Assembly: GCA_964523015.1 (NCBI GenBank)
Contig: CAZFXN010000006.1
Location: forward strand, 21,211 to 67,684
Length of the DNA: 46,474 nucleotides
Source: an uncultured Bdellovibrionales bacterium
GTDB lineage: Bacteria; Bdellovibrionota_C; UBA2361; J135
Reading direction: 5' to 3'
This document shows positions 4,307 to 41,141 of the stretch, piece by piece; position 1 is the stretch's first letter, and each line of letters begins with the position of its first letter. The notes under the pieces are model-generated. The model worked only from the letters and a program-made list of their open reading frames with translations, was not told the DNA's origin and ran no database searches. Made by a program: the position numbers and the translations under genes.

Positions 4307-5413
4307 CTAAAGGTTTTCAGAAATTTTCGAAGACTCAACAAAAAGTGTTTGAGTTGGATAAGCGAACCCTATTTCCATCTTTGTAAATTGAGCCAAAATC
4401 TCTAAATTGATATTCTGCTGAGCCTTCATGTAGATATTATAATCCTGACTTTTAACAAAATAAACTACTTCGAAATTTAGAGCTGACGCACCAAATTCTT
4501 TAAAATGACATCTATCAAATCGTACGTTCTCCTGATTGGATATTATTTGTTCTACAATTTTAGAGATCTCTTTTAATTTATCATGGGAAGTTTGGTAGGT
4601 AACACCAAATATAAAAAGTATCCTTCTCTCATTCATCCGCTTATAGTTTCGTATGCGACTATTTAAAAGATCAGAATTTGAAAAGATTAATTGATCTCCA
4701 TCAATACTTCTAAGTCTTGTTGTTTTAAGTCCTATTTTCTCAACAGTTCCTCTTAAATCCCCTACTACTATGAAGTCTCCAACAGCAAATGGACGATCTA
4801 GTACAATTGATAAAGAGCTAAACAGATCACCAAGGATGTTCTGTACTGCAAGCGCAATTGCGATACCACCAATACCAAGGCCAGTAACCAAAGCAGTGAT
4901 GTTAACCCCAATATTATCTAGAAATAACAAAAGGACGGCACCCCAAATAATTGCCTTGCTAGCGAATCGAAGAAGCTCTAGTGCTGAGATGACTGAAGGA
5001 TCTCCACCATGCTTTCTACGAACATAGTTCTCAATAAATTGAGTTACCGAAACGGAAGCCCAGATCCCTCCCTGAAACAATAATCCGAAGGTAAAAGCAA
5101 GTCTTAAGACTCGCTCGACTTCACTAGGCACAGAGATAGCCAAGGAGGCCACGTAGATAGATACGATAAAAAGTAAAAGTGAACTTGTTGTTTCAAGTAT
5201 TGAAAAGAAAAGTGCGCCGATATCCTCAGAGATTAGTTTGCTGTACTCAGCAATTTTTCGACCGATAAGTTTCTTAGCTACTATTAGGGTAGAGTAAACG
5301 AAAACAAAAAATACTAGGGCAACTATCCAACTAGATAGAGAATTGCCAAGCAAGTTATACTTTAAGAGTGGTAAAATTTTAGAAAGAGAATCAGAAGCAT
5401 TATTTAAAGTCAT
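4307..5413 (-). CDS. mscS: Small-conductance mechanosensitive channel (MscS family).
   Basis: 368 aa. Three N-terminal TM helices are present. The MscS pore and beta-domain signature is LVTGLGIGGIAIALAVQNILGDLFSSLSIVLDRPFAVGDFI.VGDLRGTVEKIGLKTTRLRSIDGDQLIFSNSDL. Confidence 0.85.
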   Translation of the reverse strand: MTLNNASDSLSKILPLLKYNLLGNSLSSWIVALVFFVFVYSTLIVAKKLIGRKIAEYSKLISEDIGALFFSILETTSSLLLFIVSIYVASLAISVPSEVERVLRLAFTFGLLFQGGIWASVSVTQFIENYVRRKHGGDPSVISALELLRFASKAIIWGAVLLLFLDNIGVNITALVTGLGIGGIAIALAVQNILGDLFSSLSIVLDRPFAVGDFIVVGDLRGTVEKIGLKTTRLRSIDGDQLIFSNSDLLNSRIRNYKRMNERRILFIFGVTYQTSHDKLKEISKIVEQIISNQENVRFDRCHFKEFGASALNFEVVYFVKSQDYNIYMKAQQNINLEILAQFTKMEIGFAYPTQTLFVESSKISENL

Positions 5414-5808
5414 GCTCTTTGATACTACTGATGCTGATACTTTGGCAAACCGTAAGAGATCCGCCCAAATTCACCGCTATAACTACTCCCACAGGCGAAA
5501 GGAAAAGAGAGATGGCTCTGGCACGAAGACAGTAGAGTGCCCTCGCCCTCTCTCTTTTCCTTTCTTGCTTCTTTTCTCTTTGTTTGACTTCCAGCGCTGG
5601 AAGTGAAGAAATTAGTGATAGTCCATTTCTTAATTTTCAACAAAATCCAAAATTAGATAGTGTTTCCTTTGTCTCACGCTAATATGGCGGTGGATATTTT
5701 GATTGATTAAAGAGCAGCTCGTTGACCTAAATTAAAAAAATTGAAAGCTATAAAGATTGGCGAAAGGAAAGGTAGAAAGAAACGAGGGTACAGATGAGAA
5801 AGAGTGGC

Positions 5809-5843
5809 GGCGGTCGAAGGTCGCTTGCGCTACTTCGACCGCC
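5809..5843 (-). terminator. GC-rich hairpin downstream of the island-A ORF; putative intrinsic terminator.
   Basis: ggcggtcgaag / cttcgaccgcc forms an 11-bp stem with a 13-nt loop. On the minus strand it is followed by a moderately U-rich tract (CACUCUUUCUCAUCUG). Confidence 0.35.
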
Positions 5844-5856
5844 CCACATCCTCCAA

Positions 5857-6165
5857 TCAGGCCTGCCCGAGTGCCGTGATCAGATCCTTGACGTTGCTGG
5901 AGAACATCATCAGATGATCCTCACGCCACCACGCACCACGATCGTACATCCGCGCCGTCAGTCGCCCCCTGAAGGCGTTGCAGTCCTTGGGGTAGACGTA
6001 GATGAGTCCCGTGTGAGGCCCTTGGGAAGTCGGGCTCGCTACCACGACCACGACATCCACCTCTTCACAGAGGTGAGATCTCGGATCCTCACCATGAGAA
6101 CTCTCGACCTGCCTGATCCTTTCAGGCCAAGCCAACTGAGTCATCGTACCAACCGTTCCGTTCAT
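5857..6165 (-). CDS. Hypothetical protein encoded inside GC-rich island A; possibly foreign in origin.
   Basis: 102 aa. Codon third positions are strongly G/C-biased (tac gtc tac ccc aag gac tgc aac gcc ttc ...), unlike the host genes. The SD GGGAGG lies 4 nt before the ATG. A GC-rich hairpin (5809..5843) sits 14 nt past the stop. The overlapping plus-strand ORF 5794..6222 is Arg/Pro-rich and looks like the wrong frame. Confidence 0.35.
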   Translation of the reverse strand: MNGTVGTMTQLAWPERIRQVESSHGEDPRSHLCEEVDVVVVVASPTSQGPHTGLIYVYPKDCNAFRGRLTARMYDRGAWWREDHLMMFSSNVKDLITALGQA

Positions 6166-6510
6166 ACCGCCTCCCGTAAGCTTTCGTTGTTGGGGACTGA
6201 AGTGTTTGACGAAAGCTCTTAGATGGTAAGCTTGTCTCCATCTAAGAGCCTTCGCCGACTAAAACCGTAAAGTATTGAGCTGCTCTCTTCAAAAAGCCGA
6301 TACTAATCCGACTGCTTTTTAAAGAGAGCAAATAAGAACTTCTACTATTATGGAGTTTGTAAAAGAGACTGCTTGAAGTACGATTCTAGCTGAAACAAAA
6401 ATCTTGTCATAGTGGATATTAAGCAAATTTGATAAGTATCATAACCTATTTACAACGTAACTATCTAAAAACAAACTACTATTTCCCGATAAAAACTTTG
6501 ATATTTAGCT

Positions 6511-8307
6511 TTACATAATTCCTTTTGCTTCATCAGGCCACAGAGATGGGGCATAATTCATGGCTTCTGTCTCACTTACAAAAGATTCATTTACAAGATC
6601 TTTAGTAATACCTTTTATAGCTCGTAACATATACTGGATCTTTCTTTTATATTCGCCATAATTCTTAGCGACCTGACGTGAATCCAATCCAATTCTAAGA
6701 ACATGCATTTCTTGACCTTCTATAGTATTAGCTATAATAGCTGGAATTGTTATTGGAAAATTATTCCATTCAGGGTCTCCTCCATTGCCTTCCCTCTTAG
6801 CCCCTAATCTATTTTTAAACTCTCCTCCCATTCCTTGGATAGGCTTTCTTAAAGTGAATGCAATAATACTATCTTCGTATTGTGCATTTCTGTTTTCAAT
6901 TACGGTAATTTCATCAATTGATCTTAAAGTATCGACGACTAGTTTCCTTAATTCCTTAATTTTCTCTCGAATTTCTATATAATCTGGCAGATCATTCATC
7001 GCAAAAACTAATGAGGCTAATTCAGGGGTATTTGCAACACCTGAAGCTACTTGGTTATATGCTGCAAGTCGATCTTTATCCCGAGTAACAAATCCATATT
7101 TTCGGGATCTGTAACATAAGTTAGAATCTTTGAAATCAAGTTGGTTAGAATGAAAACGTTCCTTATTAAATAAAACCCCACCAGCTCCCATAAGTGAGCT
7201 TACCATTTTTGCTCCAGTAAAAAACACTGCATCCGCATAATCCCAGATACTTTCTGATTTTCTACCAGTTGAGCATGTTAGATACTTCTGTGATGGCAAC
7301 CGACCGAGTCCCTGTGCATCATCTAAAACAATTACGGGGGCATAATCAGTATCTCTATACTTCTCTCGTATTGCAGATGCTATATCAACAAATTGCAACC
7401 TTCTCCCAGTACGGGTCACTGTATTAATAATAATAATTGAAGGCTTTGCATCCTCAATATTGGCAAGCATTAAGTCAAGAATTTCTTGATTTGAAGCAAA
7501 GTGCTCTGCCTCTGCTGAAATATGATCTACCTTAAAAGGCCCTATATTTTTTGCAGGTGATTCAATTTTTATATTACTCCATATATCTACATTCGGATTG
7601 AAATTTGATTTTAAAAAGCGTGGATTCTCTCCCTTTAAAGCATCGGGCATAACCCGGCCAGTATTATGAAACGCAAGAATACGACTTCCCTCTTTAAGAT
7701 CAAGACAGCCTAAGAATTGGAAAAATGCGGTAGTGGCATTGTCATCGAAAATAGCTTCTGTTAAATCAGGATTAAGATCTCCATAATGAGCACACATCTT
7801 ATGAAAGGCACTAAAGGAAGTGCTTGAGGCAACACTTTCTAATGTCACATGATCTCCTCGTTTCTTAGCCTCCATTAATATTTCTGCGACTATGCAAGCA
7901 GCACGTGCACCATCAACATTTGGGACACCAAATGTAGGATGATTGAAACTAAGAGTTGAAATCGCAGCAAATGGGACATAACGAACTCCCTTAGCTATCG
8001 CTTCTTCTCGATCTCTAATTAACTCACCTAGGACACCACCATCCCAGGTCAAACGACTTAGATCATATTCATTAAAATGACCTGTTATAATTGCGGAAGA
8101 ATCATGCAAGCATTTTTTCACACCTTCGATATGATGCGGATGAATATGGCCTACATACCAGGCAGTTTCTTTATCTGGAGTAATTTCTGAAAATAAATCT
8201 GCCTTAAGTGACTCATGCTGGGCGAAAGGAAACAACTTTTGAACCATCAAGTTGGCCCTAGGTAAGGACGGGTTATCACCCGAATTATCGATTGGCAAAC
8301 TAGTCAT
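6511..8307 (-). CDS. Class-V aminotransferase-fold PLP-dependent enzyme (cysteine desulfurase / epimerase-like) with an N-terminal extension of about 230 aa and unknown function.
   Basis: 598 aa. The central region carries the class-V signatures VIVLDDAQGLGRLP and ...FFTGAKMVSSLMGAGGVLF (the SGHK-like PLP-lysine motif). It lies 72 bp downstream of the giant cgs gene on the same strand. Confidence 0.6.
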   Translation of the reverse strand: MTSLPIDNSGDNPSLPRANLMVQKLFPFAQHESLKADLFSEITPDKETAWYVGHIHPHHIEGVKKCLHDSSAIITGHFNEYDLSRLTWDGGVLGELIRDREEAIAKGVRYVPFAAISTLSFNHPTFGVPNVDGARAACIVAEILMEAKKRGDHVTLESVASSTSFSAFHKMCAHYGDLNPDLTEAIFDDNATTAFFQFLGCLDLKEGSRILAFHNTGRVMPDALKGENPRFLKSNFNPNVDIWSNIKIESPAKNIGPFKVDHISAEAEHFASNQEILDLMLANIEDAKPSIIIINTVTRTGRRLQFVDIASAIREKYRDTDYAPVIVLDDAQGLGRLPSQKYLTCSTGRKSESIWDYADAVFFTGAKMVSSLMGAGGVLFNKERFHSNQLDFKDSNLCYRSRKYGFVTRDKDRLAAYNQVASGVANTPELASLVFAMNDLPDYIEIREKIKELRKLVVDTLRSIDEITVIENRNAQYEDSIIAFTLRKPIQGMGGEFKNRLGAKREGNGGDPEWNNFPITIPAIIANTIEGQEMHVLRIGLDSRQVAKNYGEYKRKIQYMLRAIKGITKDLVNESFVSETEAMNYAPSLWPDEAKGIM

Positions 8308-8379: not shown

Positions 8380-11300
8380 CTATAATTTACCCATAAATAC
8401 TTTGATATTTACCTCTTTTATCCCTTCAAAGCGGGCGAAAGATACCTCAGGAGTATCAGATTTTTGACCTTCAATCTCAATATATTTAACCCCTTTTTCT
8501 ACCTGTTCAGGGTTAATAACAGTAACCAGATATGTCACTTCAGCATGTCTAAAAGTGAAATCAAATTTATCCCATTTTTTTGGAATACAAGGGTTCACTG
8601 TAAAGTGATCGGCTTTTACCTTTAGTCCTACTATGTGCTCAATTCCAGCTACATAAAGCCAACCACATGATCCAGTATACCAACTCCAACCAGCTCGTCC
8701 CTCATGAGGTGGTTGAGAGTAGACATCCCCACACAGGACATACGGCTCACCTTTGTATTTATCTACACCTTTTGGATCACTAGTATGAGTTATCGGATTA
8801 AGCATGCTCCAAAGCTCCATAGCCTTATCTCCCTTACCGAGAAGTGCTGTTGCAATGACAACCCAACAAGCTGCATGAGTATACTGCCCACCATTTTCGC
8901 GAATACCTGGAAGATACCCTTTTATGTATCCTGGTTCTTGATCACTTGTATCAAAGGGAGGCGTTAGTAACTTAATAATTCTATTTTCATCATCGACAAG
9001 TCGATCAAAGACCGATTCCATAGCTTGTGCAGAGCGCGCCGGATCCCCTGCTCCAGACATTAAACTCCAACTTTGAGCAATCGAATCGATCTGACATTCG
9101 CTATTCTGTGCACTTCCTATTGGGGAACCATTATCAAAGTAGGCTCTTCGATACCATTCTCCATCCCAGCCGTGCTCTTCGATCGCGGATAACAGTTTAG
9201 TGGCATAATCAGAAAATTTCTGGGAACTTGCCTGATCGTTTCTTAATTCAGAGATCTGCGAGAACTTTCTTAAGTTGTCATACAAAAACCAACCCAACCA
9301 AACACTCTCGCCCTGTCCACCGGAACCAACCTCATTCATTCCATCGTTCCAATCACCAGCACCGATCAATGGTAATCCGTGTGATCCAAAAGTAAGTCCG
9401 TAATTAATGGCCCTAATACAGTGATTATAAATACTCTCTTTCTGATTAGAAGTATGCGGCACGATATATGATTCCATTTGATGCTTCTCTAGCGGAGCCG
9501 CATCTATAAAACCAACCTCTTCATCAAGAATCGAAGAATCTCCAGTCACTGAGATATACTTTTCAACAACATACGGTAACCAAAGATAATCATCAGAGAT
9601 CCTGGTTCTTACACCTCGACCAGTTGGTGGATGCCACCAATGCTGCACATCTCCCTCTAAAAACTGTCGAGCTGCAGCTCTTAAGATCTGTGCCCTAGTT
9701 AATGTTGGATCTAGGTAAAGTAAACTTAAGGTATCTTGCAATTGATCTCTAAAACCGTAAGCTCCACCACTCTGATATAGTCCGGACCGTCCCCAGATTC
9801 GACATGACAAGCACTGATAAATTAACCATCCATTCATCAAAATATCAAAGCTTCGATCCGGAGTATTAATAGTAATTCTTGAGGTAATTGAGCTCCAATA
9901 CTTATTAACTTGATCCAGTTCTTGAGCGTGAGCTACTGGAGATCTATATTTAACGGTTAGTTCACGGGCTTCTTCAAAATGGTAAGCTTCTCCCATAAAA
10001 AACGAGAGCTCTTTTTTCTGTCCAGGATTAAGTGTTAACGCAACTTTCAGCACAGCACACGATTCAAATCCGGCACCAGTTTTCTTTGACAACTGAACAA
10101 GCTTAGAAAACGATCCGATTCCAGCGATCGCTTTTATTGGGGAGACAGCTTGGGCAAGCGCGATTGGAGACTCAAATGAACCGTTCCGTCCGATAAACTC
10201 TAATCGACTAGTAGTATATGAATTAATTTCCGCACTAGATCCTAGATAAACTATCCGACCTGCAAATTCATTATTGTAGTAATTTATGGCAGTTAATATT
10301 TTAGCCCGCTGATCGAACCCTGTGTTAATAAAGGGAGCTGTTTGGTGTCTATTGATACCTAGCACCCAATCAACATATAGATAGAGCTCCAGTCGCTTTG
10401 GCTTGCTATCGTTGTTTTGTAAATTTAAATTCCAAAATTTTACTCGATCTTCAATTGAGCCAGAGACACAAAGGTGACTCTGGAGATTCTGATGCTCTGT
10501 CTTAAAAATAGAAGATCCAAAGTTATGTTCAACCTCAAACTCCTGATCCATAGAAGATGGCAATGGAGTTGCTGACCAATAATCACCAGTTAATCCATCA
10601 CGGATATAGATCGCTTCAGTTGGCGAATCAGATACTGGATCATTTGACCATCCACTAAGTCGATTCTCACGACTATTTTCAGACCAGGTAAAGCCTCCAC
10701 CAGTTTCACTAACTAAGAATCCAAAATTAGGATTAGCAATGACATTTATCCATGGCAGAGGAGTTAGTCGCGGGGTAAGACCTTGCTTCGAGAGCTTTAT
10801 GTAATATGACTTTCCTTTAGATGTGAATCCTCCATATCCATTAAAAAACTCACTCACTACAGCTGGAGCGGAGATAGGTCTTTCTTTAGTTATGCGAGCA
10901 GGATTATCAAAACGTTGATCCTTAAAGATATTATCTAGAAACCCTTTTTTATCATCTGAACTAAATTCATTATCCTCAAACACTGAGAGTTGTCGTGCCA
11001 AGGAACCTCTCTCCGCTATAAAAACTATACGTGCTGTGGCCATTAAAAGCGTTCTCTCTTCAGAAGAGAGTTGATGCATGGTTCGAACAAAAATCCCGCC
11101 CCTTTTATCAAGATGTCCTGCAGCATATCCCGATCTTACTACCTGATCTAATGCATCTTGAAAGTTCTGAATGTATCCTTCTGTATATTCGTTAAGAATA
11201 ATTAGATCAAAATCGATACGACGATGTTTTAGATATTGATGAGCTAAAATTAGCTCACTGACCTGCTTTAATTGTGTCTCGTCATTAACTTTGAGGACGA

Positions 11301-14300
11301 TAATTGGAAGATCTCCAGAAATTCCAAATCTCCAAAAACCACTCTGAGTTAATCTGTTCTGAGCAATCAGATTACTTGGACCTCTAAGAGTATCAACCTG
11401 AAAAAACAAGGCATTAGCTATTCTTTGAAAAATATGGCTCTGGGTGACGGAAATCTGCTCATGACGTAATTCAACGTTACTCTTACTCCAGGCCATTTCA
11501 AAAGCTCGGTTGACCGAGTGTGGGTCATGATATAATTGACCTATAAATAAAGCTTCTCCTCTATTTTTAGCTACTGCTGTGATAAAAGAGAGAGACTCTG
11601 AAGTGCCTGGCTCTATCTCAACCTTAACTCTTAGTGAGAAGATCGGATCAATGACTGGGCCAACTGTCCCAGTCAAATTACTGTTGTCATTAAAAACCTG
11701 AGGGTGATAGACATTAGATCCGCGCCCAATGAATTTCTCTCGACTTGTTTCATACTGTGTTTTTCCCCAAACCACATTCATTGCAATCATATGCAACAAA
11801 AATAACCCCTCCTCATGAGCAGATCTTGGTCGTCTAGAAAAAAGTAGCCCATCAATGTCACTGATAAACTCGCTTTGAATAAACATCTTATTAAATGCAG
11901 GATGAGAGATATCAGCGGCATTTGATCCAAGCGCTACTTCAGCAAAACTTGTGAATTCTAGAATTCTAGGCTGCAAGGAGAAATTAGTGATTGTGATCCG
12001 TCTAACCTCGACATCATCCTCTGGTGAAACTGTAATCTCAGTATGTAGTCCGATACCATAGTCGCGTCGTTTGTATTCTACTTTATCTGGACTAAATATT
12101 ACCTCATAAGCATCGGGTTCAACCTTAGTAGGCATATATGTTGTCGACCAAGTTTTATTACTTTCCAGATCACGAACATAGAAGTACGTGCCATAGCTGT
12201 TCGTTAGAGGATCCTCACGCCATCGAGTTAAAGAGGTGTCCCCTTTAAATCTACTAAAACCACTCCCAGCATTATCCAACATCACAGTATAGTTATCATT
12301 TGAGAGCACCCGCGTTCTTGGTACCTGGGTATGTGGAGTGAAGATAATCTCTCCAACTGTAGTTTTCCTAAGAGCCTCTTGCCTCTCAAGAAATGAGAGC
12401 TCTGCTTGATGAGGAATAAGGACTGTTACATTTTGTGGTACTCGCTCTTGCAATAATAGTTCGCTAGAGCGAATCAGCGGATCTCTATGAAACCTCTCCT
12501 GCATAATGCCATTGTTTAAGACATTATTGAGAGAGATTAATGTCATCCCCTGGTGATGAGCCAGGTAAGACTTTACTATATGATAATCCTCATCATCGCT
12601 AAGTCGATCTGGGGTATAATCAACAGACTCGTAAAAGCCTAGATCCCCTCTTAATCCAACTTTTTCTAATGCTGCTACATTTTGAATTGAATCAGAGGAA
12701 TTAACCATCATTGCCAAAAAAGTTGAATATGGCGAGACGACGATGTCGTCAGATAATCCTCTTTTTAATCCTAATCCTGGGACACCAAATGCTCGATACT
12801 GATAAGTTTGCTCAAAGTCAACACCACAGTATCCCGACTCAGACATACCCCACGGCACTTTTCGTTTAATTCCATAATTTTTCTGTGCACGAATAATAGA
12901 TCTGTAAGTGGCATGGAGTATTGTCTTTGGAAAATCCTTCATCACTAACAGTGGCATCAAGTACTCAAACATAGTACCGGTCCATGATAGAAGTGCTCGA
13001 CCACCTGATGTGTCTGTTAATCCTCGGCCAAGAGAAAACCAATGTTCCTGCGGTACAGATTTTGTTGCAATCGCGACTAAAGATGCGAGTCGTGCTTCAG
13101 ATGCTAGAAGATCGTAATGATTATTATCAAAACGTGCATCATCAACCCTAAAACCGATATAGAAAAGCTTCTTTTTCTTATCATATAGGAAATTAAAGTC
13201 TGCTTCATTTATAAATTTATCACAGTAATTGATAAGCTTGTCGTACTTCTTTTTATTTTGTGGATCGTCAATTGAGAATTCAATTAATGCATTCTTAAGA
13301 GAGATAAGATGTCCAACAAAATTACCACTATCTACTGTTGAGATATAGCGAGGACTAAGTGGCTGTTTAGTTCTTGTTTCATACCAATTGTAGAAATGTC
13401 CGTTATATCGCTCCAAAGTGTTTAAGCTATCAATTGTTTTCTGTAATCTATCAAGCATCTCTGATTTATCTATAAACTTCAGATCTACTGCAGTTACTAA
13501 ACTGAGGATCGATAAACTGATGTTAGTTGGTGAAGTTCGATGAGCAACAGTTTTTCTCGGAAACAATTGAACATTATCTGGCACTAGATAATTATTCTCT
13601 TCGTTCATATAGACAGAGAAGTATTCCCATGTATCTCTAGCTATCTCAACTAAGTCTTCCCTCTCTTTCTGGCTTATTTCATACTTATAATCCTGAGTCG
13701 GTCTTCCGGTAAAAAAAGCAAAAGCTGGAGCAAAAAGCCAAAGTGCAAGATAAGGACTCGCTCCAACTAATATTTTTAAATCTATATTAGCAATGAAGAT
13801 ACTTCCTAGTATCACCAAGACAGTTCCAGGCAACATTTCAAAGAGATAACTTGTAAATTTACTTCCAAGCCGTTGTTCAGCTTGATGAGCAGTCTCCCAT
13901 TCAAGTAAATACTTCTTAGAAATAAAAACTCGATAAAGAGTAATTAAAATTGCATGAATCATTAAGTAAGCTTGGTGCGGGAGAAATATAAAATTAAGAA
14001 CTGCTTGTACCAGATTACTAAAAAGATCTTTTCCTAAACCGGCAATAAAACTTCCGCGCAAAAGTCCAAGTGGTTCAAAGATAAAAGTGTTAATCAGTTG
14101 GGCAAACACAGGAAATGCAATGAACGCTAGAATTGTAAGTGTTGATACCAAGATAGAATCAGGTGCCACACTCCAGGTTAGGAGAAGAAAAAGGAAACTT
14201 GCTGGGGCGATTAAACTTCGGCGAAGATTATCAAGCAATTTCCATTGACCAAGCAAAGAGATCGGTGATTGGTAACGTTCTCCTTTTGCATTTGGTATCT

Positions 14301-16746
14301 TATTAAATATCCATGGAAGCAGTTGCCAATCTCCTCTAACCCATCGATGAAGTCTCTTAGCATAAACTGTGTACCGAGAAGGAAATTCGTCAATCAACTC
14401 GATGTCGACTGCCAATCCAGCACGAGCAAATAATCCCTCAAATAGATCGTGGCTAAGTAAGGCATTCTCAGGGACTCTATTATGAAGGGCTCTCTCAAAA
14501 GCTTTTACATCGTAAATAGCTTTTCCAATAAATGACCCTTCTTTAAAAAGATCTTGATAGACGTCAGACACTGCGGTTGTATATGGATCTAAACCGGCAT
14601 GTCCAGCAAATACCCGTGAGAATAATGATACGATTGAACTTGTTAGAGAGACCCCAATTCGTGGCTGTATAATTCCGTATCCCTCGACAACTATGTTTTT
14701 TTCATCATCAAAGTAAGCTTGATTTAATGGATGAGAGATCGTTCCGATCAATTTTATCGCACTATCTCGTGGTAAATGAGTATCAGCATCAAGAGTTATT
14801 ACATAACGGGTCTTTTTTAATAGCTCAAGGTCACCAACGACCACCTCCATATTGTGTGAGTCATCTCCTAAGATTAACCTATTAAATTCCTCTAATTTAC
14901 CGCGTTTTCTTTCCCAACATAAAAATTCACCTTCAGAAGGGTTCCAGATCCTCTTTCGAGTAATTAAGAAAAATCTCTTCGGCTTATTGGTGCAATATTT
15001 ACTATTTAGAACAGAGATCTTCTGGGCAGCATACTCAATTAACTCTCTATCTTCAGGTTCTGTTTCATTTTTCCCTTCGATTAAATCGCCTAACAGCGCA
15101 AACGAAATGTTAGGATCATAGTTTGCTATAAATCTAACTTCTAAGAAATCTACTCCGTTATCTATAACCTCCCGATCTCTAAGAATAGAATTAACCGCCA
15201 CCGTAGATCTACTTTCATCCGGCACTCCGAATTCATAATCCATCTTTGGTAGGACTCGTGGTGACGTGACCAGAGTAACTGCCCAGTTTACAATGTTAAG
15301 AGCAAAAGAGCTGGCTGGGAAAATAAAAAGAAGTGAGAGTATTAGTGCTACAAAAAAAGGAACACCTAAATTTAAGATAAATAGATAAGCTACTAAAGTT
15401 GAGAGCAAAGTTAGAGCACCTAGGCTTAAAAGATAAAACTCTAGTGGCCGCTTATCAAATATATATCCACTAATTTTTTCCCCAATCCCCTTTTGCCTTC
15501 CTAAGGTCTTATCTAAAACTTCTTTTCCTTTATCTAAGAGATAATACCCAACATGATAGAGCTTTACTTTGGCTTCAGCAGTTTCAGCTGCTGTTGTTTT
15601 AGCTTCGATAGCGATTTTTAAAACATGCTCTGCAATATCAATCTCAGTTTTCTTAAGTATCCTTGAGTATCCTTCGATTACTGAACGACAAGAATTCCTA
15701 GTTTTAAAATCAGATTTTGAAAATATCTGTGCCGGATCTCGCCTGAGAACTGCATCCACTTTACTGTTTTGCTCAAACCAATCTGGCCAGCTCATGCTCA
15801 AGATTGATTTTAGAGAGCTAAAGGAATTCCCAATCGATATCTGATTTGCTGCTTGACCATACTGCTCAGTTCGAATTATTTCATCCGCTGGTTGTAAGTT
15901 CTCAGCTAACCATTCTTCAAACCACCTCAGCGCTAACCCTCCTTTAGGTCCAGCAAGTCGCATACGTCGAACAAGGTGAGCAGCATAAGAGGGAAAAACT
16001 TCAGTAAATGTCTTAACTGTACTAGCTAAATCCAAAAGCAGATCAGTTGGATCTTTCTTTTCATTATCGAGAATCTTTCTACATAACTCTTCAGCCTCAT
16101 TTTCAGACTCTTTGGCATGAAGAGCTGTCAGGGCTAATCTTCTTAAATTCTCAAGAAGCGCAATTCGCAGCATAATTGGAAAAGCCCAGAGCTCTCCAAT
16201 TGTAAGAACCTGTATCGATTGATATGAGCCAATAAACCCACTTAGAAGTTCAGCATCAATCACAGCATCAGTATGTGAGGTTATCTCAAGGGCCAACCCA
16301 TATACTCTAGGTAGATCAACATACTCACCATCAATTAGTTTAGGGAGTGATCCATAATATCCTTTAGGCAAATGGTCGCGGATCTCTTTAACGTTTTGCT
16401 CAATAACGTGGTAATTATCTAAAAGCCACTCTCCACCAGGCGTTATTAATTCCCCCTCTTTTGAAGCACTAGCAAGGAGATAATAAGTTCTCTCTAAAAT
16501 TTTGAAGTTCTCTTCAAAACGATTCCGAATTCTACGCCAACCCTTAGCAGATCTTGTTACTCGATGCTCACTTGCCAAGCTTTGAGCGAGTTTGATCAGT
16601 CCATCCCGAGTTAAAATCTCAGCGCGAAGTGGTTTATCTACGGTAGATTGTGTTCGTCCAACCTGAACAACTCTAAGAACATCACCTGCTCTCGGTTTTT
16701 TTTTAATTTGGTTAACTTGATCACGACGGGTGGAAAAATTTATCAT
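8380..16746 (-). CDS. cgs: Cyclic beta-1,2-glucan synthase (Cgs/NdvB type). It has a family-84 GT-A glycosyltransferase domain, a multi-helix membrane region and a C-terminal GH94 glucan-phosphorylase-like domain.
   Basis: 2788 aa, comparable to Brucella Cgs at about 2.8 kaa. The GT-A DxD region is VITLDADTHLPRDSAIKLIGTISHPLNQ. Several hydrophobic helices follow. The C-terminal roughly 1000 aa shows GH94 features (cellobiose/chitobiose phosphorylase-like, ...GDWNDGMN..., WFLYDNL). Confidence 0.9.
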   Translation of the reverse strand: MINFSTRRDQVNQIKKKPRAGDVLRVVQVGRTQSTVDKPLRAEILTRDGLIKLAQSLASEHRVTRSAKGWRRIRNRFEENFKILERTYYLLASASKEGELITPGGEWLLDNYHVIEQNVKEIRDHLPKGYYGSLPKLIDGEYVDLPRVYGLALEITSHTDAVIDAELLSGFIGSYQSIQVLTIGELWAFPIMLRIALLENLRRLALTALHAKESENEAEELCRKILDNEKKDPTDLLLDLASTVKTFTEVFPSYAAHLVRRMRLAGPKGGLALRWFEEWLAENLQPADEIIRTEQYGQAANQISIGNSFSSLKSILSMSWPDWFEQNSKVDAVLRRDPAQIFSKSDFKTRNSCRSVIEGYSRILKKTEIDIAEHVLKIAIEAKTTAAETAEAKVKLYHVGYYLLDKGKEVLDKTLGRQKGIGEKISGYIFDKRPLEFYLLSLGALTLLSTLVAYLFILNLGVPFFVALILSLLFIFPASSFALNIVNWAVTLVTSPRVLPKMDYEFGVPDESRSTVAVNSILRDREVIDNGVDFLEVRFIANYDPNISFALLGDLIEGKNETEPEDRELIEYAAQKISVLNSKYCTNKPKRFFLITRKRIWNPSEGEFLCWERKRGKLEEFNRLILGDDSHNMEVVVGDLELLKKTRYVITLDADTHLPRDSAIKLIGTISHPLNQAYFDDEKNIVVEGYGIIQPRIGVSLTSSIVSLFSRVFAGHAGLDPYTTAVSDVYQDLFKEGSFIGKAIYDVKAFERALHNRVPENALLSHDLFEGLFARAGLAVDIELIDEFPSRYTVYAKRLHRWVRGDWQLLPWIFNKIPNAKGERYQSPISLLGQWKLLDNLRRSLIAPASFLFLLLTWSVAPDSILVSTLTILAFIAFPVFAQLINTFIFEPLGLLRGSFIAGLGKDLFSNLVQAVLNFIFLPHQAYLMIHAILITLYRVFISKKYLLEWETAHQAEQRLGSKFTSYLFEMLPGTVLVILGSIFIANIDLKILVGASPYLALWLFAPAFAFFTGRPTQDYKYEISQKEREDLVEIARDTWEYFSVYMNEENNYLVPDNVQLFPRKTVAHRTSPTNISLSILSLVTAVDLKFIDKSEMLDRLQKTIDSLNTLERYNGHFYNWYETRTKQPLSPRYISTVDSGNFVGHLISLKNALIEFSIDDPQNKKKYDKLINYCDKFINEADFNFLYDKKKKLFYIGFRVDDARFDNNHYDLLASEARLASLVAIATKSVPQEHWFSLGRGLTDTSGGRALLSWTGTMFEYLMPLLVMKDFPKTILHATYRSIIRAQKNYGIKRKVPWGMSESGYCGVDFEQTYQYRAFGVPGLGLKRGLSDDIVVSPYSTFLAMMVNSSDSIQNVAALEKVGLRGDLGFYESVDYTPDRLSDDEDYHIVKSYLAHHQGMTLISLNNVLNNGIMQERFHRDPLIRSSELLLQERVPQNVTVLIPHQAELSFLERQEALRKTTVGEIIFTPHTQVPRTRVLSNDNYTVMLDNAGSGFSRFKGDTSLTRWREDPLTNSYGTYFYVRDLESNKTWSTTYMPTKVEPDAYEVIFSPDKVEYKRRDYGIGLHTEITVSPEDDVEVRRITITNFSLQPRILEFTSFAEVALGSNAADISHPAFNKMFIQSEFISDIDGLLFSRRPRSAHEEGLFLLHMIAMNVVWGKTQYETSREKFIGRGSNVYHPQVFNDNSNLTGTVGPVIDPIFSLRVKVEIEPGTSESLSFITAVAKNRGEALFIGQLYHDPHSVNRAFEMAWSKSNVELRHEQISVTQSHIFQRIANALFFQVDTLRGPSNLIAQNRLTQSGFWRFGISGDLPIIVLKVNDETQLKQVSELILAHQYLKHRRIDFDLIILNEYTEGYIQNFQDALDQVVRSGYAAGHLDKRGGIFVRTMHQLSSEERTLLMATARIVFIAERGSLARQLSVFEDNEFSSDDKKGFLDNIFKDQRFDNPARITKERPISAPAVVSEFFNGYGGFTSKGKSYYIKLSKQGLTPRLTPLPWINVIANPNFGFLVSETGGGFTWSENSRENRLSGWSNDPVSDSPTEAIYIRDGLTGDYWSATPLPSSMDQEFEVEHNFGSSIFKTEHQNLQSHLCVSGSIEDRVKFWNLNLQNNDSKPKRLELYLYVDWVLGINRHQTAPFINTGFDQRAKILTAINYYNNEFAGRIVYLGSSAEINSYTTSRLEFIGRNGSFESPIALAQAVSPIKAIAGIGSFSKLVQLSKKTGAGFESCAVLKVALTLNPGQKKELSFFMGEAYHFEEARELTVKYRSPVAHAQELDQVNKYWSSITSRITINTPDRSFDILMNGWLIYQCLSCRIWGRSGLYQSGGAYGFRDQLQDTLSLLYLDPTLTRAQILRAAARQFLEGDVQHWWHPPTGRGVRTRISDDYLWLPYVVEKYISVTGDSSILDEEVGFIDAAPLEKHQMESYIVPHTSNQKESIYNHCIRAINYGLTFGSHGLPLIGAGDWNDGMNEVGSGGQGESVWLGWFLYDNLRKFSQISELRNDQASSQKFSDYATKLLSAIEEHGWDGEWYRRAYFDNGSPIGSAQNSECQIDSIAQSWSLMSGAGDPARSAQAMESVFDRLVDDENRIIKLLTPPFDTSDQEPGYIKGYLPGIRENGGQYTHAACWVVIATALLGKGDKAMELWSMLNPITHTSDPKGVDKYKGEPYVLCGDVYSQPPHEGRAGWSWYTGSCGWLYVAGIEHIVGLKVKADHFTVNPCIPKKWDKFDFTFRHAEVTYLVTVINPEQVEKGVKYIEIEGQKSDTPEVSFARFEGIKEVNIKVFMGKL

Positions 16747-37799: not shown

Positions 37800-38954
37800 C
37801 TAAAACTGATTCTCCATATCCTTTAGAGCCTGTGCACGTTTAGCCTCTTCAGGATCGGCGATGATCTTATCTAGAATAAGTCTACCGAATCGAGCATAGA
37901 TAACGTCCATCGGACAGTATCTTGAATCGTTAATTAACGGATCCATAAAATCAGGATGAAATCGCATCATATGCTCAAGTACTGCGCGATCATGTTCAGA
38001 TTTGGCTAAGATATTCCAGATATTCTTACCGATAAAGGTAAAATCTCTTGAGCCCCAATCAAGGAGTTGCTGAACATAGTATCCGGCAGCTAAAAGCTCT
38101 TCAGGAGCTGGTGGACGTTGAAATCTATATGAACCATCACTTGCCCGCATACGATCGGCCAGATCCACTAAGTTAGAAACAAGTTGAGGATTACAGTGAG
38201 GGGATAAGATATTTTTCTCTAAAGTTGAATCAAGATAGGTCATGGTTATCGGATGAACACGTCTTAAAAGTGCTTCATCAGGTACCCGATTAAAGTTCTT
38301 TGTAAATATAATTAAAAGATTATCGATGTTAGCACTAATTTCTGGTCGTGATTCTAACCAAATTATTCCATCCTGAATCGGACCCAAAAAGAAGGTATCA
38401 ATTGCCCCATCAGGCTTATCTAATTCGTCAACTAGTAAGATGACAGGCTGCTTTTGTGAAGCTAAAAAGGCTCTAGAAAGTATCCCTAAATTCATCATTG
38501 CACTTGGATCAGAGGCATCTTTTCCAGTCATGGCATTTACCATGGCTAACGTTGAAGGAGATTCGATTAAATTCTGGGTTGGCATCCCGGTATAGCAGCT
38601 AAGACACATGAACTCTGCCCCAGTGATCTTGGCCAGCGATTTAGCCATAAAGCTTTTTCCGCAACCAGATGGGCCCTCTAGCAATAATGTCCTAACTTTT
38701 TCTGATGGGGTATTAAGAACTAAAGCGATCTGAAATGAAATGAATTCTAAACACTGGTATCCAACAGTAGCTAATTTATCTACCAGTTCCTTTGGATTAC
38801 CAACAACCAATCCTGAAGTTTTACTTTGAGAGACTTCGATTGAAGCTGTATTTGTTTTTGTAGTTTTTGTAGTCTCAGGTTGAGGTTCTTTAACTGTTGC
38901 CCCAACATCTGCAACCTTAAGAGAAACCTGCCCTTGCTTCCTAAGTGGAATCAT
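37800..38954 (-). CDS. MoxR/CbbQ-like AAA+ ATPase.
   Basis: 384 aa. The Walker A is LLLEGPSGCGKSFMAKSLA and the Walker B is ILLVDELDKP. The N-terminal 70 aa are T/K/Q-rich and disordered. No partner VWA-domain gene is adjacent. Confidence 0.75.
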   Translation of the reverse strand: MIPLRKQGQVSLKVADVGATVKEPQPETTKTTKTNTASIEVSQSKTSGLVVGNPKELVDKLATVGYQCLEFISFQIALVLNTPSEKVRTLLLEGPSGCGKSFMAKSLAKITGAEFMCLSCYTGMPTQNLIESPSTLAMVNAMTGKDASDPSAMMNLGILSRAFLASQKQPVILLVDELDKPDGAIDTFFLGPIQDGIIWLESRPEISANIDNLLIIFTKNFNRVPDEALLRRVHPITMTYLDSTLEKNILSPHCNPQLVSNLVDLADRMRASDGSYRFQRPPAPEELLAAGYYVQQLLDWGSRDFTFIGKNIWNILAKSEHDRAVLEHMMRFHPDFMDPLINDSRYCPMDVIYARFGRLILDKIIADPEEAKRAQALKDMENQF

Positions 38955-39144
38955 ATCTACCTAATAAAACTCTGAAAAAGTGCAATTCAATTGCGTAACT
39001 ATTCAGTACTGTTATGACAGGTTGTGGCCTTTGGGTGACATTTATATAGGCCCAAAATAAAGGCTAATTAGCTAATCTTTCAAGAGTTTTTCTAGTATTA
39101 TTACTATACTTTCCTATCTGACCCTCTCCTCTTAAAAAATCCCT

Positions 39145-39162
39145 TACTTCTACGTAGAAGTA
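39145..39162. repeat. Perfect 18-bp palindrome tacttctacgtagaagta (copy 1), upstream of the HNH gene.
   Basis: It has 9-bp arms and sits in the divergent promoter region between the AAA ATPase and the HNH gene. It is near-identical to copy 2 at 40214-40231. Confidence 0.6.
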
Positions 39163-39491
39163 AAATGGAAAACTTTGTTAATATATTTATCTAAAGTTGG
39201 TGGCGGATTTTTATAATAGCTACACAGATAAAAATTAAAAAAGTTTTGAAATTCCAAAAGATGACTACTTTTCTCTTGACAGGATTTCTAGAGCATCCTC
39301 TTAAGCTAAGATCAAATCTAAATAAAGACCTATTAAACGCTTTACGATTCTCTATAAAAATTTTTTTTAAAATACCATCGCGATTTTTGGTAAAGATACG
39401 AGATCTCACCTCCTTGCCCCTCTAAGAGGCCCTCAAAAACCTATGATATGCTTATTATATAATGCGAAATATTTAAATCTTAGGAAGCGGT

Positions 39492-40160
39492 ATGGATATT
39501 AAAAATTTATCAGATAACGAATTAACCTCTCGAATAGATTTACTTAGAAGTAAGTAACGAGAGATCACTCTTAAATTTCTTATTCATCTTGGGGAATTTG
39601 ATAAGAGAAGATTATACTTAGAATTAGGGTTCTCGTCCCTTTTTGATTACTGTACTAGGAAACTCGGGTATTCTGATGGGAGTGCATTTAGAAGGTTAGA
39701 GAGTGCTAGATGCCTTAGAGAGAATCCTGAATTATCTAACTATATTCTATCTGGAAAAGTCTCTCTACCTAAAGAGGTTTATAATGAGCTTCAAATCCTT
39801 AGGTCTAAGCTATCAAATAAACTAGGATCAAATATCTCTATTGAGGCAGTCTTTCCTGAGTTAATTAAAAGTTACGATAAAAAAGGTAGGGCAACGATAG
39901 TAAGAAAATCAAACGAGAATAGTCGATATATTCCCGTCTCAATAAAGAGAGAGGTCTCCGATCGTGATGGATGTCAATGCAGCTATGTTTCCCCAAATGG
40001 AGTGCGTTGTACCCAGAATCATTATCTTAACTATGATCATGTAAGGCTGTTTGCATTAGGTGGGAAAACAAATAGTGATAATCTTAGACTTTTATGTCGA
40101 GCCCATAATCAGATGTTTGCTAGAATGACTTTTGGTGAGTTAGATTTTGCTCGGAAATAA
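39492..40160 (+). pseudogene. HNH endonuclease gene interrupted by a single in-frame TAA at 39555-39557.
   Basis: One continuous frame reads MDIKNLSDNELTSRIDLLRSK*REITLKFLIHLGEFDKRRLYLELGFSSLFDYCTRKLGYSDGSAFRRLESARCLRENPEL...REVSDRDGCQCSYVSPNGVRCTQNHYLNYDHVRLFALGGKTNSDNLRLLCRAHNQ. The second part carries the His-Asn-His nuclease motif. This is the widespread family of small HNH endonucleases. The SD AGGAAG lies before the ATG. There is no in-frame start codon after the stop until near the end of the frame. Confidence 0.7.
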
Positions 40161-40213
40161 TCAATCGAAATAATTTTTAATAAAGAGGAAATCTTGGGTA
40201 GTTTCCCTATTTT

Positions 40214-40231
40214 TACTTCTACGTCGAAGTC
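40214..40231. repeat. Near-identical 18-bp palindromic repeat tacttctacgtcgaagtc (copy 2), between the convergent HNH and Dam genes.
   Basis: 17 of 18 positions are identical to copy 1. The extended flank also matches (ccct[at]..ttacttctacgtNgaagtNaat). It lies between the two stop codons and could also act as a bidirectional terminator. Confidence 0.6.
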
Positions 40232-40265
40232 AATCTGTATTTATTTGGTTTACAAAGAGGATAAG

Positions 40266-41141
40266 TTAATAATTCATCACAAGATGCTCGGTAACGGCAC
40301 CGCGCTTATCAGCTTTTGAATTAATCATTCTAAGCATTGGAACATCAACTACTCTAAATCCAGAATAGAGCTCTTTGGTCAAATCGTGTCCAGCATTTGA
40401 AAGCATTAAGATTACACCACGTTTATCAAGATCTCTAAATAAAGAGGCTAATTCCTGCTGCTCTTCCATACCAAATCCACCCTTATCATAGGCTGTAAAA
40501 GATGAAGTTTTATTAAGTGGAATATACGGAGGATCAAAATATACAAAATCTCCCTCTCCAAACGCTTCCCAAGGGAGATCTTGAAACGGAATATTTTCAA
40601 TTACTGCACCCTTAAGTGCATCAGAGCAAGCCAAAATTCTTTCAGTATCTACAATAGTAGGATTAGTGTATCGCCCAAAGGGAACATTAAATATGCCCTT
40701 TGAATTAACCCGATAAAGACCATTAAAGCCTGTTCGATTTAAATAGATCATCCGTGCTGCCACCTCGACTTCTGTAAGTCCTGTTGGATCGATCGCCCGA
40801 ACAGAGTAGTAATAATCTTTATCGTAGTAGTGTCTTGAAAGTGCTTCAATTAAATCTCTTGGCTTATCGCGAACCATTCGATATGTAGTAATTAACTCAG
40901 CATTACTATCAGCTAAAAAAGAGGATCCCGGTTGGAGATGAAAGAAAAGTGCAGCCCCTCCTAGGAATGGCTCACAATACATTTTGAAATTTCGAGGGAG
41001 GTACTCTTTAAGACGGGGAATCATCCCCCTTTTGCCACCGGCCCATTTAAGAAATGGTACAGCATCAGCCGCTCTAAGACGAAGACGAGATTTTATTTTG
41101 GCAGTATTAGACACGGAGACAACACCTCTTAACGGAGGCAA
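40266..41141 (-). CDS. Dam-family (D12 class) N6-adenine DNA methyltransferase.
   Basis: 291 aa. The AdoMet motif I is FLKWAGGKRGMIPRLKEYLP...YCEPFLGGAALFF. The catalytic DPPY motif is FVYFDPPYIP. Confidence 0.85.
   Translation of the reverse strand: MPPLRGVVSVSNTAKIKSRLRLRAADAVPFLKWAGGKRGMIPRLKEYLPRNFKMYCEPFLGGAALFFHLQPGSSFLADSNAELITTYRMVRDKPRDLIEALSRHYYDKDYYYSVRAIDPTGLTEVEVAARMIYLNRTGFNGLYRVNSKGIFNVPFGRYTNPTIVDTERILACSDALKGAVIENIPFQDLPWEAFGEGDFVYFDPPYIPLNKTSSFTAYDKGGFGMEEQQELASLFRDLDKRGVILMLSNAGHDLTKELYSGFRVVDVPMLRMINSKADKRGAVTEHLVMNY

Follow-up and report, generated by a model that had tools for sequence, protein, structure and literature searches.

Why should a broken nuclease gene lie between two matching palindromes? 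The question is raised by a locus in a 46,474-nt stretch of DNA from an uncultured Bdellovibrionales bacterium (contig CAZFXN010000006.1 of assembly GCA_964523015.1, positions 21,211 to 67,684 of the forward strand), which we refer to as the window. Here, an HNH endonuclease gene is bracketed by two similar palindromes and lies next to a gene for a Dam-family methyltransferase. A preliminary description of this DNA left several readings side by side: a decaying restriction-modification module, a small mobile cassette with ends in the style of IS200/IS605 elements, and a pair of operator sites for one regulator. On balance, we think it probable that window positions 39144–40232 represent a decayed copy of a selfish single-protein cassette, one whose palindromes would be bound by the cassette's own protein; spread by break repair is a more tentative proposal.

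The palindromes and the gene between them

The cassette consists of a 20-bp palindrome, about 330 nt of 5′ DNA, the HNH gene, about 50 nt of further DNA, and the same palindrome again. Intact units measure 1376–1388 bp, and the window copy measures 1089 bp. Its parts are:

39144–39163, unstranded: left cassette end, a perfect 20-bp palindrome with halves TTACTTCTAC and GTAGAAGTAA; homology to loci L001, L002 and L003 starts here
39164–39491, plus strand: conserved non-coding 5′ region, promoter or regulatory DNA, with blocks common to nine elements from several lineages
39492–40160, plus strand: HNH endonuclease pseudogene, of a family built from a ParB/KorB-like helix-turn-helix (HTH) domain, a central domain and an HNH domain
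39555–39557, plus strand: premature stop, codon 22, TAA, where intact relatives have GAA (Glu)
39760–39767, plus strand: deletion junction, with 306 bp (102 codons) lost in frame, most of the central domain
40161–40212, plus strand: cassette 3′ tail, also conserved in L001
40213–40232, unstranded: right cassette end, a degraded palindrome with halves TTACTTCTAC and GTCGAAGTCA, matching at 18/20; homology to L001 and L002 stops here

A search of a protein collection returned 52 relatives of the window HNH protein. The closest are P0001, encoded on L001, and P0002, encoded on L002 and L003, all three loci being metagenome contigs. Both proteins are intact, 324 amino acids long and 81–86% identical to the window copy. 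When the window is aligned at the DNA level with L001 and L002/L003, homology is bounded by the left and right palindromes; the outer flanks are unrelated, and the neighbouring genes are unlike those of the window (HipA/HipB in L001). The inner flanks, AAAATGGAA and AAAAATAGGGAA, are alike when inverted and thus form terminal inverted repeats of about 30 nt. No target-site duplication is present in nine of the ten elements checked, the window copy included. The HNH gene is the only open reading frame (ORF) of the cassette. Small ORFs in the 5′ region have no Pfam match and are broken by indels between copies. The genes beside ten cassette copies include no Y1_Tnp. Judged from these comparisons, the cassettes behave as mobile elements, though they encode no transposase or recombinase.

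The preliminary description gave the left copy as a perfect 9+9 palindrome, TACTTCTACGTAGAAGTA at 39145–39162. That is correct, and the perfect symmetry actually spans 20 bp (TTACTTCTACGTAGAAGTAA, 39144–39163). The right copy, TACTTCTACGTCGAAGTC at 40214–40231, had been counted as identical to the left one at 17 of 18 positions; the actual figure is 16/18, with two mismatches, or 18/20 when the copies are taken as 20-mers. Both changes fall in the outer half of the right copy, which is symmetric at 7/9 arm pairs, so that the description of both copies as palindromic is exact for the first and only approximate for the second. Folded as single-stranded DNA hairpins, copy 1 reaches −4.8 kcal/mol (z −6.1) and copy 2 reaches −1.9 kcal/mol (z −0.9), a poor hairpin. 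A shared extended flank had also been reported. It exists in that a 21-nt stretch matches at 19/21 positions in direct orientation, but it is looser than claimed, with the "ccct" at unequal distances from the two palindromes. In inverted orientation, 39146–39165 and 40211–40230 agree at 19/20 positions, because an A-run or T-run lies on the inner side of each copy. In intact right ends, such as that of L001, the palindrome has a T-run before it and an A-run after it; in the window, each copy retains the inner run alone. The earlier judgement that such a pair is unlikely by chance is well supported: a motif search of the 46 kb allowing up to three mismatches finds two matches, these sites alone, against 0.03 expected, and 0/100 shuffles gave two. 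No GATC lies within the window palindrome. Intrinsic terminators combine a looped, G+C-rich hairpin with a T-run after it; a scan for them found none at the left or right palindrome, and a terminator reading was rejected on that ground.

The frame at 39492–40160 had been claimed as an HNH gene, and it is a real one, retaining the HNH residues (C..C, DH, N, C, HN) and giving weak Pfam matches to HNH and HNH_5. The accompanying suggestion that the nuclease is dead also stands. The TAA at 39555–39557 is the single in-frame stop of the frame. No in-frame start codon occurs between this stop and position 40002, and therefore at most a fragment of 52 amino acids could be made from the gene. In intact copies, the endpoints of the 102-codon deletion have a common microhomology (AAGTCTCTCT / AAGTTCTCTCT). 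In addition, Leu replaces the near-invariant Pro of the DH.xPF.GG motif. With a nonsense codon, an internal deletion and a Pro-to-Leu change, the window HNH gene is, as read from its sequence, dead.

The two genes that flank the cassette lie outside it:

37800–38954, minus strand: AAA ATPase gene (MoxR/MadB-like), with promoter-like sites at 39083–39054 and 38978–38950, outside the cassette
40266–41141, minus strand: Dam-family N6-adenine methyltransferase gene (TIGR00571, 2e-82; FDPPY motif)

The methyltransferase had been recognized as a Dam-family enzyme with DPPY abutting the cassette, and this is confirmed by the match and motif just given; its gene lies 33 nt from copy 2 and is convergent with the HNH gene. 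The copy of this protein in our collection, P0053, is called as 282 amino acids. Syntenic relatives were collected by a protein scan with the AAA ATPase and by look-ups of Dam homologues. In L113 and L114, the order is Dam, a 140-nt spacer, AAA ATPase and M29, with no HNH gene, and the Dam proteins are 72% identical to that of the window. In L098, a histidine kinase gene separates Dam from the AAA ATPase; in L112, Fcl-Dam precedes a transporter gene, again with no HNH gene; and in L084, Fcl directly precedes the AAA ATPase, with neither Dam nor HNH. Dam and the AAA ATPase are adjacent in relatives that lack the HNH gene and are therefore old neighbours, into whose spacer the HNH cassette was inserted. 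The empty-site comparison called for earlier is thus answered at the level of gene order and not at that of sequence. Two short-read contigs, L110 and L111, are 100% identical to the window and end inside the cassette, in the way that assemblies break at repeats. The spacer of L084 has a hairpin, GATACTTTAGGCAAAGTATC at 5809–5828, probably a terminator, with arms loosely like those of the cassette palindrome.

The HNH family and its palindromes

Related cassettes are widespread. A scan of species-representative genomes, a set from which the window's own genome is absent, yields 121 related loci, mostly in metagenome-assembled genomes (MAGs) of Bdellovibrionota and Oligoflexia, with others in Latescibacterota, Krumholzibacteriota, Eisenbacteria and Polyangia (Myxococcota). 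Several MAGs have three to seven copies each, and many copies sit at contig ends. Copies inside one MAG have homology blocks of 1.0–1.3 kb in common. In the P0005 lineage, a 1210-bp block is 99.9% identical in at least two contexts and has sharp edges. When family clusters are defined at 50% identity, an exhaustive profile-free search finds 1045 of them at E ≤ 1e-30 and 8834 at E ≤ 1e-10. Among phages, we find no homologue beyond the HNH domain, and among plasmids, HNH-domain matches only, in two Deinococcus plasmids; a phage or plasmid origin was rejected accordingly. The earlier proposal of a small mobile cassette with palindromic ends is thus upheld in two respects, namely that homology across contexts is bounded by the palindromes and that the family is multi-copy; its analogy with IS200/IS605 elements is not upheld, for reasons given below.

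An AlphaFold2 model of P0001, built from 45 sequences, has a pLDDT (predicted local distance difference test) score of 88. The family protein combines an N-terminal ParB/KorB-like DNA-binding HTH domain with HNH, and no ParB CTPase domain is detected in it. Over the first ~100 residues, Pfam DUF222 matches P0034 with 27.8 bits, the sole score above the cut-off of 24.4; P0018, P0025 and P0031 give weak matches (E 1e-4 to 7e-3), P0001 a weaker one (E 0.11) and the window copy none. These weak N-terminal matches point to a distant relationship with the DUF222-HNH (REP13E12) proteins. NCBIfam IscB also matches weakly (E 2e-4, 20 bits versus a cut-off of 175), in the HNH domain alone, and the family protein has no RuvC domain.

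Even in distant members, a palindrome lies on both sides of the gene, the same within an element and different between lineages, as these examples illustrate:

L020: AACTCTCCCCGGGGAGAGTT
L054: CTCCGCCGGCGGAG
L083: CACCCTCC(T/C)CAGGAGGGTG
L099: CACCGCCACTGTGGCGGTG, with its reverse complement at the other end
L108: AACTTCACCGGTGAAGTT
L103: ACTTTCAGCGCTGGAAGT

L099, L100 and L108 provide further palindrome pairs. By one fixed criterion applied to HNH genes and control ORFs of the same DNA, matching palindromes occur on both sides of 10/38 HNH genes and 3/295 control ORFs (Fisher p = 2.6e-8). Arms of the form ACYYC...GRRGT are seen in 14 of the 24 palindromes collected, and arms of this type are kept even between AT-rich Bdellovibrionota and GC-rich Polyangia. 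At the orthologous loci L024, L025 and L026, which are ~77% identical over ~20 kb aligned, the upstream palindromes are ACCTCCACCGGTGGAGGT, ACTTCCACCGGTGGAAGT and ACCTCCGCCGGCGGAGGT; they differ by paired, symmetric changes and remain perfect. These three loci keep the upstream palindrome only, and their copies are presumably no longer mobile. Beyond this, a number of loci have arrangements that bear on how the cassettes spread:

L017, 7640–7730 and 8895–8990: outer modules A and B around the HNH gene
L020, 9670–9765 and 10910–10990: the same outer modules, swapped around the HNH gene
L102, 2700–2718 and 3983–4001: hybrid end palindromes
L002, 992–1042 and 2456–2506 (the same in L003): 51-bp duplication of the 3′ end of the upstream gene, the sole long flanking duplication in ten elements
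L031, 6991–7094 and 8648–8753: tandem sites
L054, 9903–10936: intra-ORF palindromes, four copies in all
L045, 10579–10598 and 10856–10875: intra-ORF palindromes, read in different frames as TPGAGS and HSRRRE
Window, 5587–5604, unstranded: solo sister palindrome ACTTCCAGCGCTGGAAGT, a perfect 9+9 palindrome, intergenic

L017 and L020 belong to one MAG, and the cassette is oppositely oriented in them relative to the same outer modules A and B. An extra palindrome and a remnant of a cassette tail lie just upstream in L020 (9604). The ends of L099 are inverted and not a direct duplication: reverse-complementing the left copy gives the right one (central T versus A). In L102, the inner halves of the end palindromes are those of L099 and the outer halves are unlike those of L099; the outer halves are complementary to each other at 7/10 positions and resemble the window-type half-site TTACTTCTAC. 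Homology between L102 and L099 starts at the palindrome centre.

In some members, palindromes are found in additional places. The Polyangia copy in L031 has CACTTCC...GGAAGTG sites in tandem triplets, one triplet on either side of the gene, at a spacing of ~39–47 nt. In L054 and in Latescibacteria such as L045, copies of the element's own palindrome are also present inside the ORF, at two disordered linkers that flank the central domain. The HNH ORF of L045 is intact (387 amino acids), and its two internal copies are read in different frames, which implies that the constraint is on DNA and not on protein. These linker palindromes might also drive domain exchange or deletion between copies. Inversion between the internal palindromes of the Latescibacteria copies was considered and rejected, the copies being collinear.

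The 10-kb flanks of ten related elements contain no solo copy of the element motifs. Solo palindromes of a sister type do occur, at window 5587–5604 and at L102 5955–5972. The window example has ACTTC...GAAGT arms, as the cassette ends do, and matches the end palindrome of the P0005 lineage (L103) at 17/18 positions; its similarity to the P0005 left end is confined to the palindrome and ~10 further nt. It falls in the intergenic spacer that separates an MscS-family channel gene (4307–5413, minus strand) from a GC-rich island described below. No HNH remnant is found near window 5587, where tblastn with the 52 family proteins gave noise only.

How the cassettes may spread

ParB/KorB-like HTH domains bind palindromes of 13–16 bp. 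Because the family protein has an N-terminal domain with this fold, we take it that a dimer of the HTH-HNH protein encoded by the cassette would bind the palindromes as duplex DNA, with the upstream one probably acting as an operator as well. The HNH domain would then cut the cognate palindrome, and a resident cassette would be copied in repair of the break, with its end palindromes as the sole homology. Solo palindromes would be free targets, or else footprints of recombination between the two ends. Such a scheme would account for the lack of target duplication, for insertion in either orientation and for hybrid palindromes. Of the routes considered, homing-like break repair of this kind seems to us the most likely, though we hold it tentatively, at clearly less than an even chance. 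Similarly tentative is the possibility that the cassettes constitute a hitherto unrecognized class of autonomous mobile element, defined by an HTH-HNH protein that recognizes its palindrome and copied by break repair.

Several observations weigh against reading the cassettes as palindrome-bounded units that spread in this manner. If the nuclease cuts the sites at the ends of its own cassette, the resident copy would be cut too. The intra-ORF palindromes of L054 and L045 fall outside what the homing model accounts for. In some lineages, the homology block runs 20–70 nt past the palindrome. The cassette of L002/L003 is the exception with regard to target duplication, as it is flanked by the 51-bp direct duplication, whose copies are 96% identical. 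By the criterion used above, a clear palindrome pair is found in no more than roughly one family member in four. L099 and L102 have a 14-mer in common beyond the right-hand palindrome, which blurs the interpretation of a crossover at the centre. More generally, comparison of half-sites gives a mixed picture: L002 and L102 favour insertion at the centre, L108 favours the palindrome as a unit, and the others are neutral. Finally, no empty site is found at base level, since the spacer of L113 cannot be aligned to the window flanks and has no palindrome, and the closest Dam-AAA relatives are only ~72% identical.

Other explanations can be given for the same features. One is that the palindromes are mainly operators or insulators, by which the HNH gene is autoregulated through the protein's own HTH, and that the gene spreads passively by horizontal transfer and general recombination. 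KorB is itself a repressor that binds palindromic operators, the upstream site lies near conserved promoter blocks, L031 has its tandem arrays, and the syntenic, vertically inherited loci L024, L025 and L026 keep an upstream palindrome alone, still symmetric at ~77% nucleotide identity. We nevertheless regard this explanation as rather unlikely. Autoregulation has no need of the downstream copy, 0–50 nt past the stop codon, and it would not predict that homology across contexts ends at the palindromes, that 99.9% identical blocks with sharp edges recur in several contexts, or that orientation is swapped between L017 and L020 and ends are hybrid in L102. What remains plausible of the earlier idea, operators of one regulator, is the narrow version in which the palindromes are putative sites of the cassette's own protein; a generic regulator box is not indicated, as no extra copy exists in the window or in the 10-kb flanks. 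Compared with KorB, ParB and SopB, which have palindromic operator or centromere sites, the putative DNA-binding domain here is fused to an HNH nuclease. It is also conceivable that the palindromes are pre-existing, dispersed host repeats of the repetitive extragenic palindromic (REP) kind, with the HNH gene merely lying between two of them, somewhat as in RAYT loci. The sister-type solo palindromes at window 5587 and L102 5955 would suit such a view, as would the fact that the outer flanks within one MAG are themselves repeated modules. It becomes decidedly unlikely, however, given that the 46 kb hold no further window-type motif and the flanks of ten elements no solo copies, that the inner flanks beside the palindromes travel with the cassette, and that palindrome type tracks HNH lineage and not host, several types being found in one metagenome. 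REPtrons resemble the cassettes in that a lone gene has a copy of a palindromic repeat on either side. They differ in that the gene is here an HNH gene and not a Y1 transposase-like RAYT, and in that the cassette palindrome is not a high-copy dispersed repeat within the window and the flanks of related elements.

Two further explanations depend on what lies in or beside the cassette. The preliminary description likened the ends to those of IS200/IS605 elements, in which case the cassette would be a single-strand transposon, with hairpins forming on single-stranded DNA and HNH acting as a transposase or an IscB-like helper. Like those elements and the ISC (IscB) elements, the cassette is small, has palindromic or hairpin-type ends in terminal or subterminal position and makes no target duplication, and some of those elements too have a nuclease gene only; copy 1 is capable of forming a hairpin, and the weak IscB match falls in the HNH domain. 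Yet neither the cassettes nor their surroundings contain a Y1/HUH transposase (TnpA), the AT-rich hairpins fold only weakly (the −4.8 and −1.9 kcal/mol given above), and the end palindromes are identical, perfect and loop-less, inverted where this can be told, in contrast to the distinct, imperfect subterminal hairpins of the left and right ends of IS200/IS605. With respect to ISC/IscB (OMEGA) systems, RuvC and an omega RNA (HEARO) are both missing: Rfam gives no match, the 5′ region shows no conserved RNA structure, and no guide RNA was found. A single-strand transposon is thus very unlikely. The other explanation, that of a remnant restriction-modification or addiction module with a retained Dam and a dead HNH partner, is barely credible. 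The two genes are indeed adjacent and convergent, and PADLOC gives the window Dam the same score for a Type II as for an orphan methyltransferase. The reading fails because Dam is found without HNH (L113, L114, L098, L112) and the cassette is found without Dam: wherever else it was seen, it adjoins HipA/HipB, DksA, a glycosyltransferase or other genes and never Dam. The palindrome has no GATC, and the HNH protein is without any defence-system match in PADLOC, on which account a role in defence was rejected. By gene content, then, Dam is a neighbour only and not a restriction-modification partner of HNH, and a false lead is thereby removed.

Among known systems, a close likeness is found in REP13E12 of Mycobacterium, a multi-copy chromosomal repeat of ~1.3–1.4 kb that encodes PF02720 and PF01844 and no transposase. 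The cassette, too, is a multi-copy unit of ~1.3–1.4 kb, its sole product joins a helical domain at the N terminus to an HNH domain at the C terminus, and a transposase is lacking. It differs in that its proteins are shorter (~300–390 amino acids) and mostly below the DUF222 cut-off, and in its hosts, which are Bdellovibrionota, Latescibacterota, Krumholzibacteriota and Myxococcota and not Actinobacteria. REP13E12/HNH/DUF222 has been named as a repetitive element (PMC10589994). The searchable literature yielded no report that REP13E12 is flanked by co-varying palindromes, and no description of palindrome-flanked DUF222-like HNH cassettes. Symmetric, lineage-specific palindromes that bound a large HNH family thus apparently constitute a pattern undescribed in that literature. 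The cassette also resembles the free-standing HNH homing endonuclease genes of phages and organelles, which have in common with it a selfish HNH-only product, no target duplication, decay once fixed, and presence or absence at a conserved locus, the last being evident here at the level of gene order only (L113, L114). Unlike the cassette, which has a full palindrome at each end and occurs at unrelated loci, classical homing endonuclease genes interrupt their recognition site and need long allelic flanking homology; and, as noted, the cassette has no phage homologue beyond the HNH domain.

The window copy itself is a relic of little importance to its host, and its value lies in exposing a rule at the level of the family. 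If the cassettes are indeed autonomous elements copied by break repair, they would parallel, with a protein as the guide, the homing role proposed for TnpB and IscB, and they would offer a mechanism for the long-unexplained REP13E12/DUF222-HNH repeats. If the protein recognizes and cuts the palindromes, this would be a new form of DNA mobility, and a very compact one, and it would provide small sequence-specific nucleases whose target can be read from the flanks of the gene.

Regulatory region and other features of the window

Upstream of the HNH gene, the following elements are present:

39276–39281: TTGACA, a block conserved across lineages
39400–39407: GAGATCTC, a conserved block, an 8-bp palindrome containing GATC
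39444–39449: TGATAT, a −10-like element (TGnTATAA-like), in a conserved block
39458–39463: TATAAT, alongside the −10-like element
39482–39487: AGGAAG, ribosome-binding site

We interpret the 5′ region, on the whole, as operator and promoter DNA. The possibility that it encodes a guide RNA or an RNA of the HEARO type was considered and rejected: Rfam gives only noise for the 330 nt, with no gathering-level match anywhere in the window, and RNAalifold predicts 0 pairs for nine elements. The GAGATCTC block is near-invariant across lineages (window, L001, L002, L099, L103, L108 and L004). By analogy with IS10 and IS50, methylation-dependent control of expression through the GATC of this block is conceivable. 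The window cassette, with its conserved GATC-bearing block, happens to adjoin a Dam gene.

Two features elsewhere in the window are also of note. The GC-rich island at 5794–6222, beyond the solo sister palindrome, has a G+C content of 57–61%, versus ~39% for the window, and looks foreign. Its ORFs overlap on both strands (142 amino acids on the plus strand, 102 on the minus strand) and have no Pfam match; the island has no Rfam match, and it includes a hairpin with an 11-bp stem, GGCGGTCGAAG...CTTCGACCGCC, at ~5806–5845. Finally, an 18-nt hairpin-forming motif, TAAATACTTTGATATTTA, occurs twice, at 6490–6507 and 8394–8411, with 0 and 1 mismatch and 0.02 occurrences expected. One copy lies just past the stop codon of a 598-amino-acid gene (6511–8307, minus strand), and the other just inside the 3′ end of an ORF of 2788 amino acids (8380–16746, minus strand).

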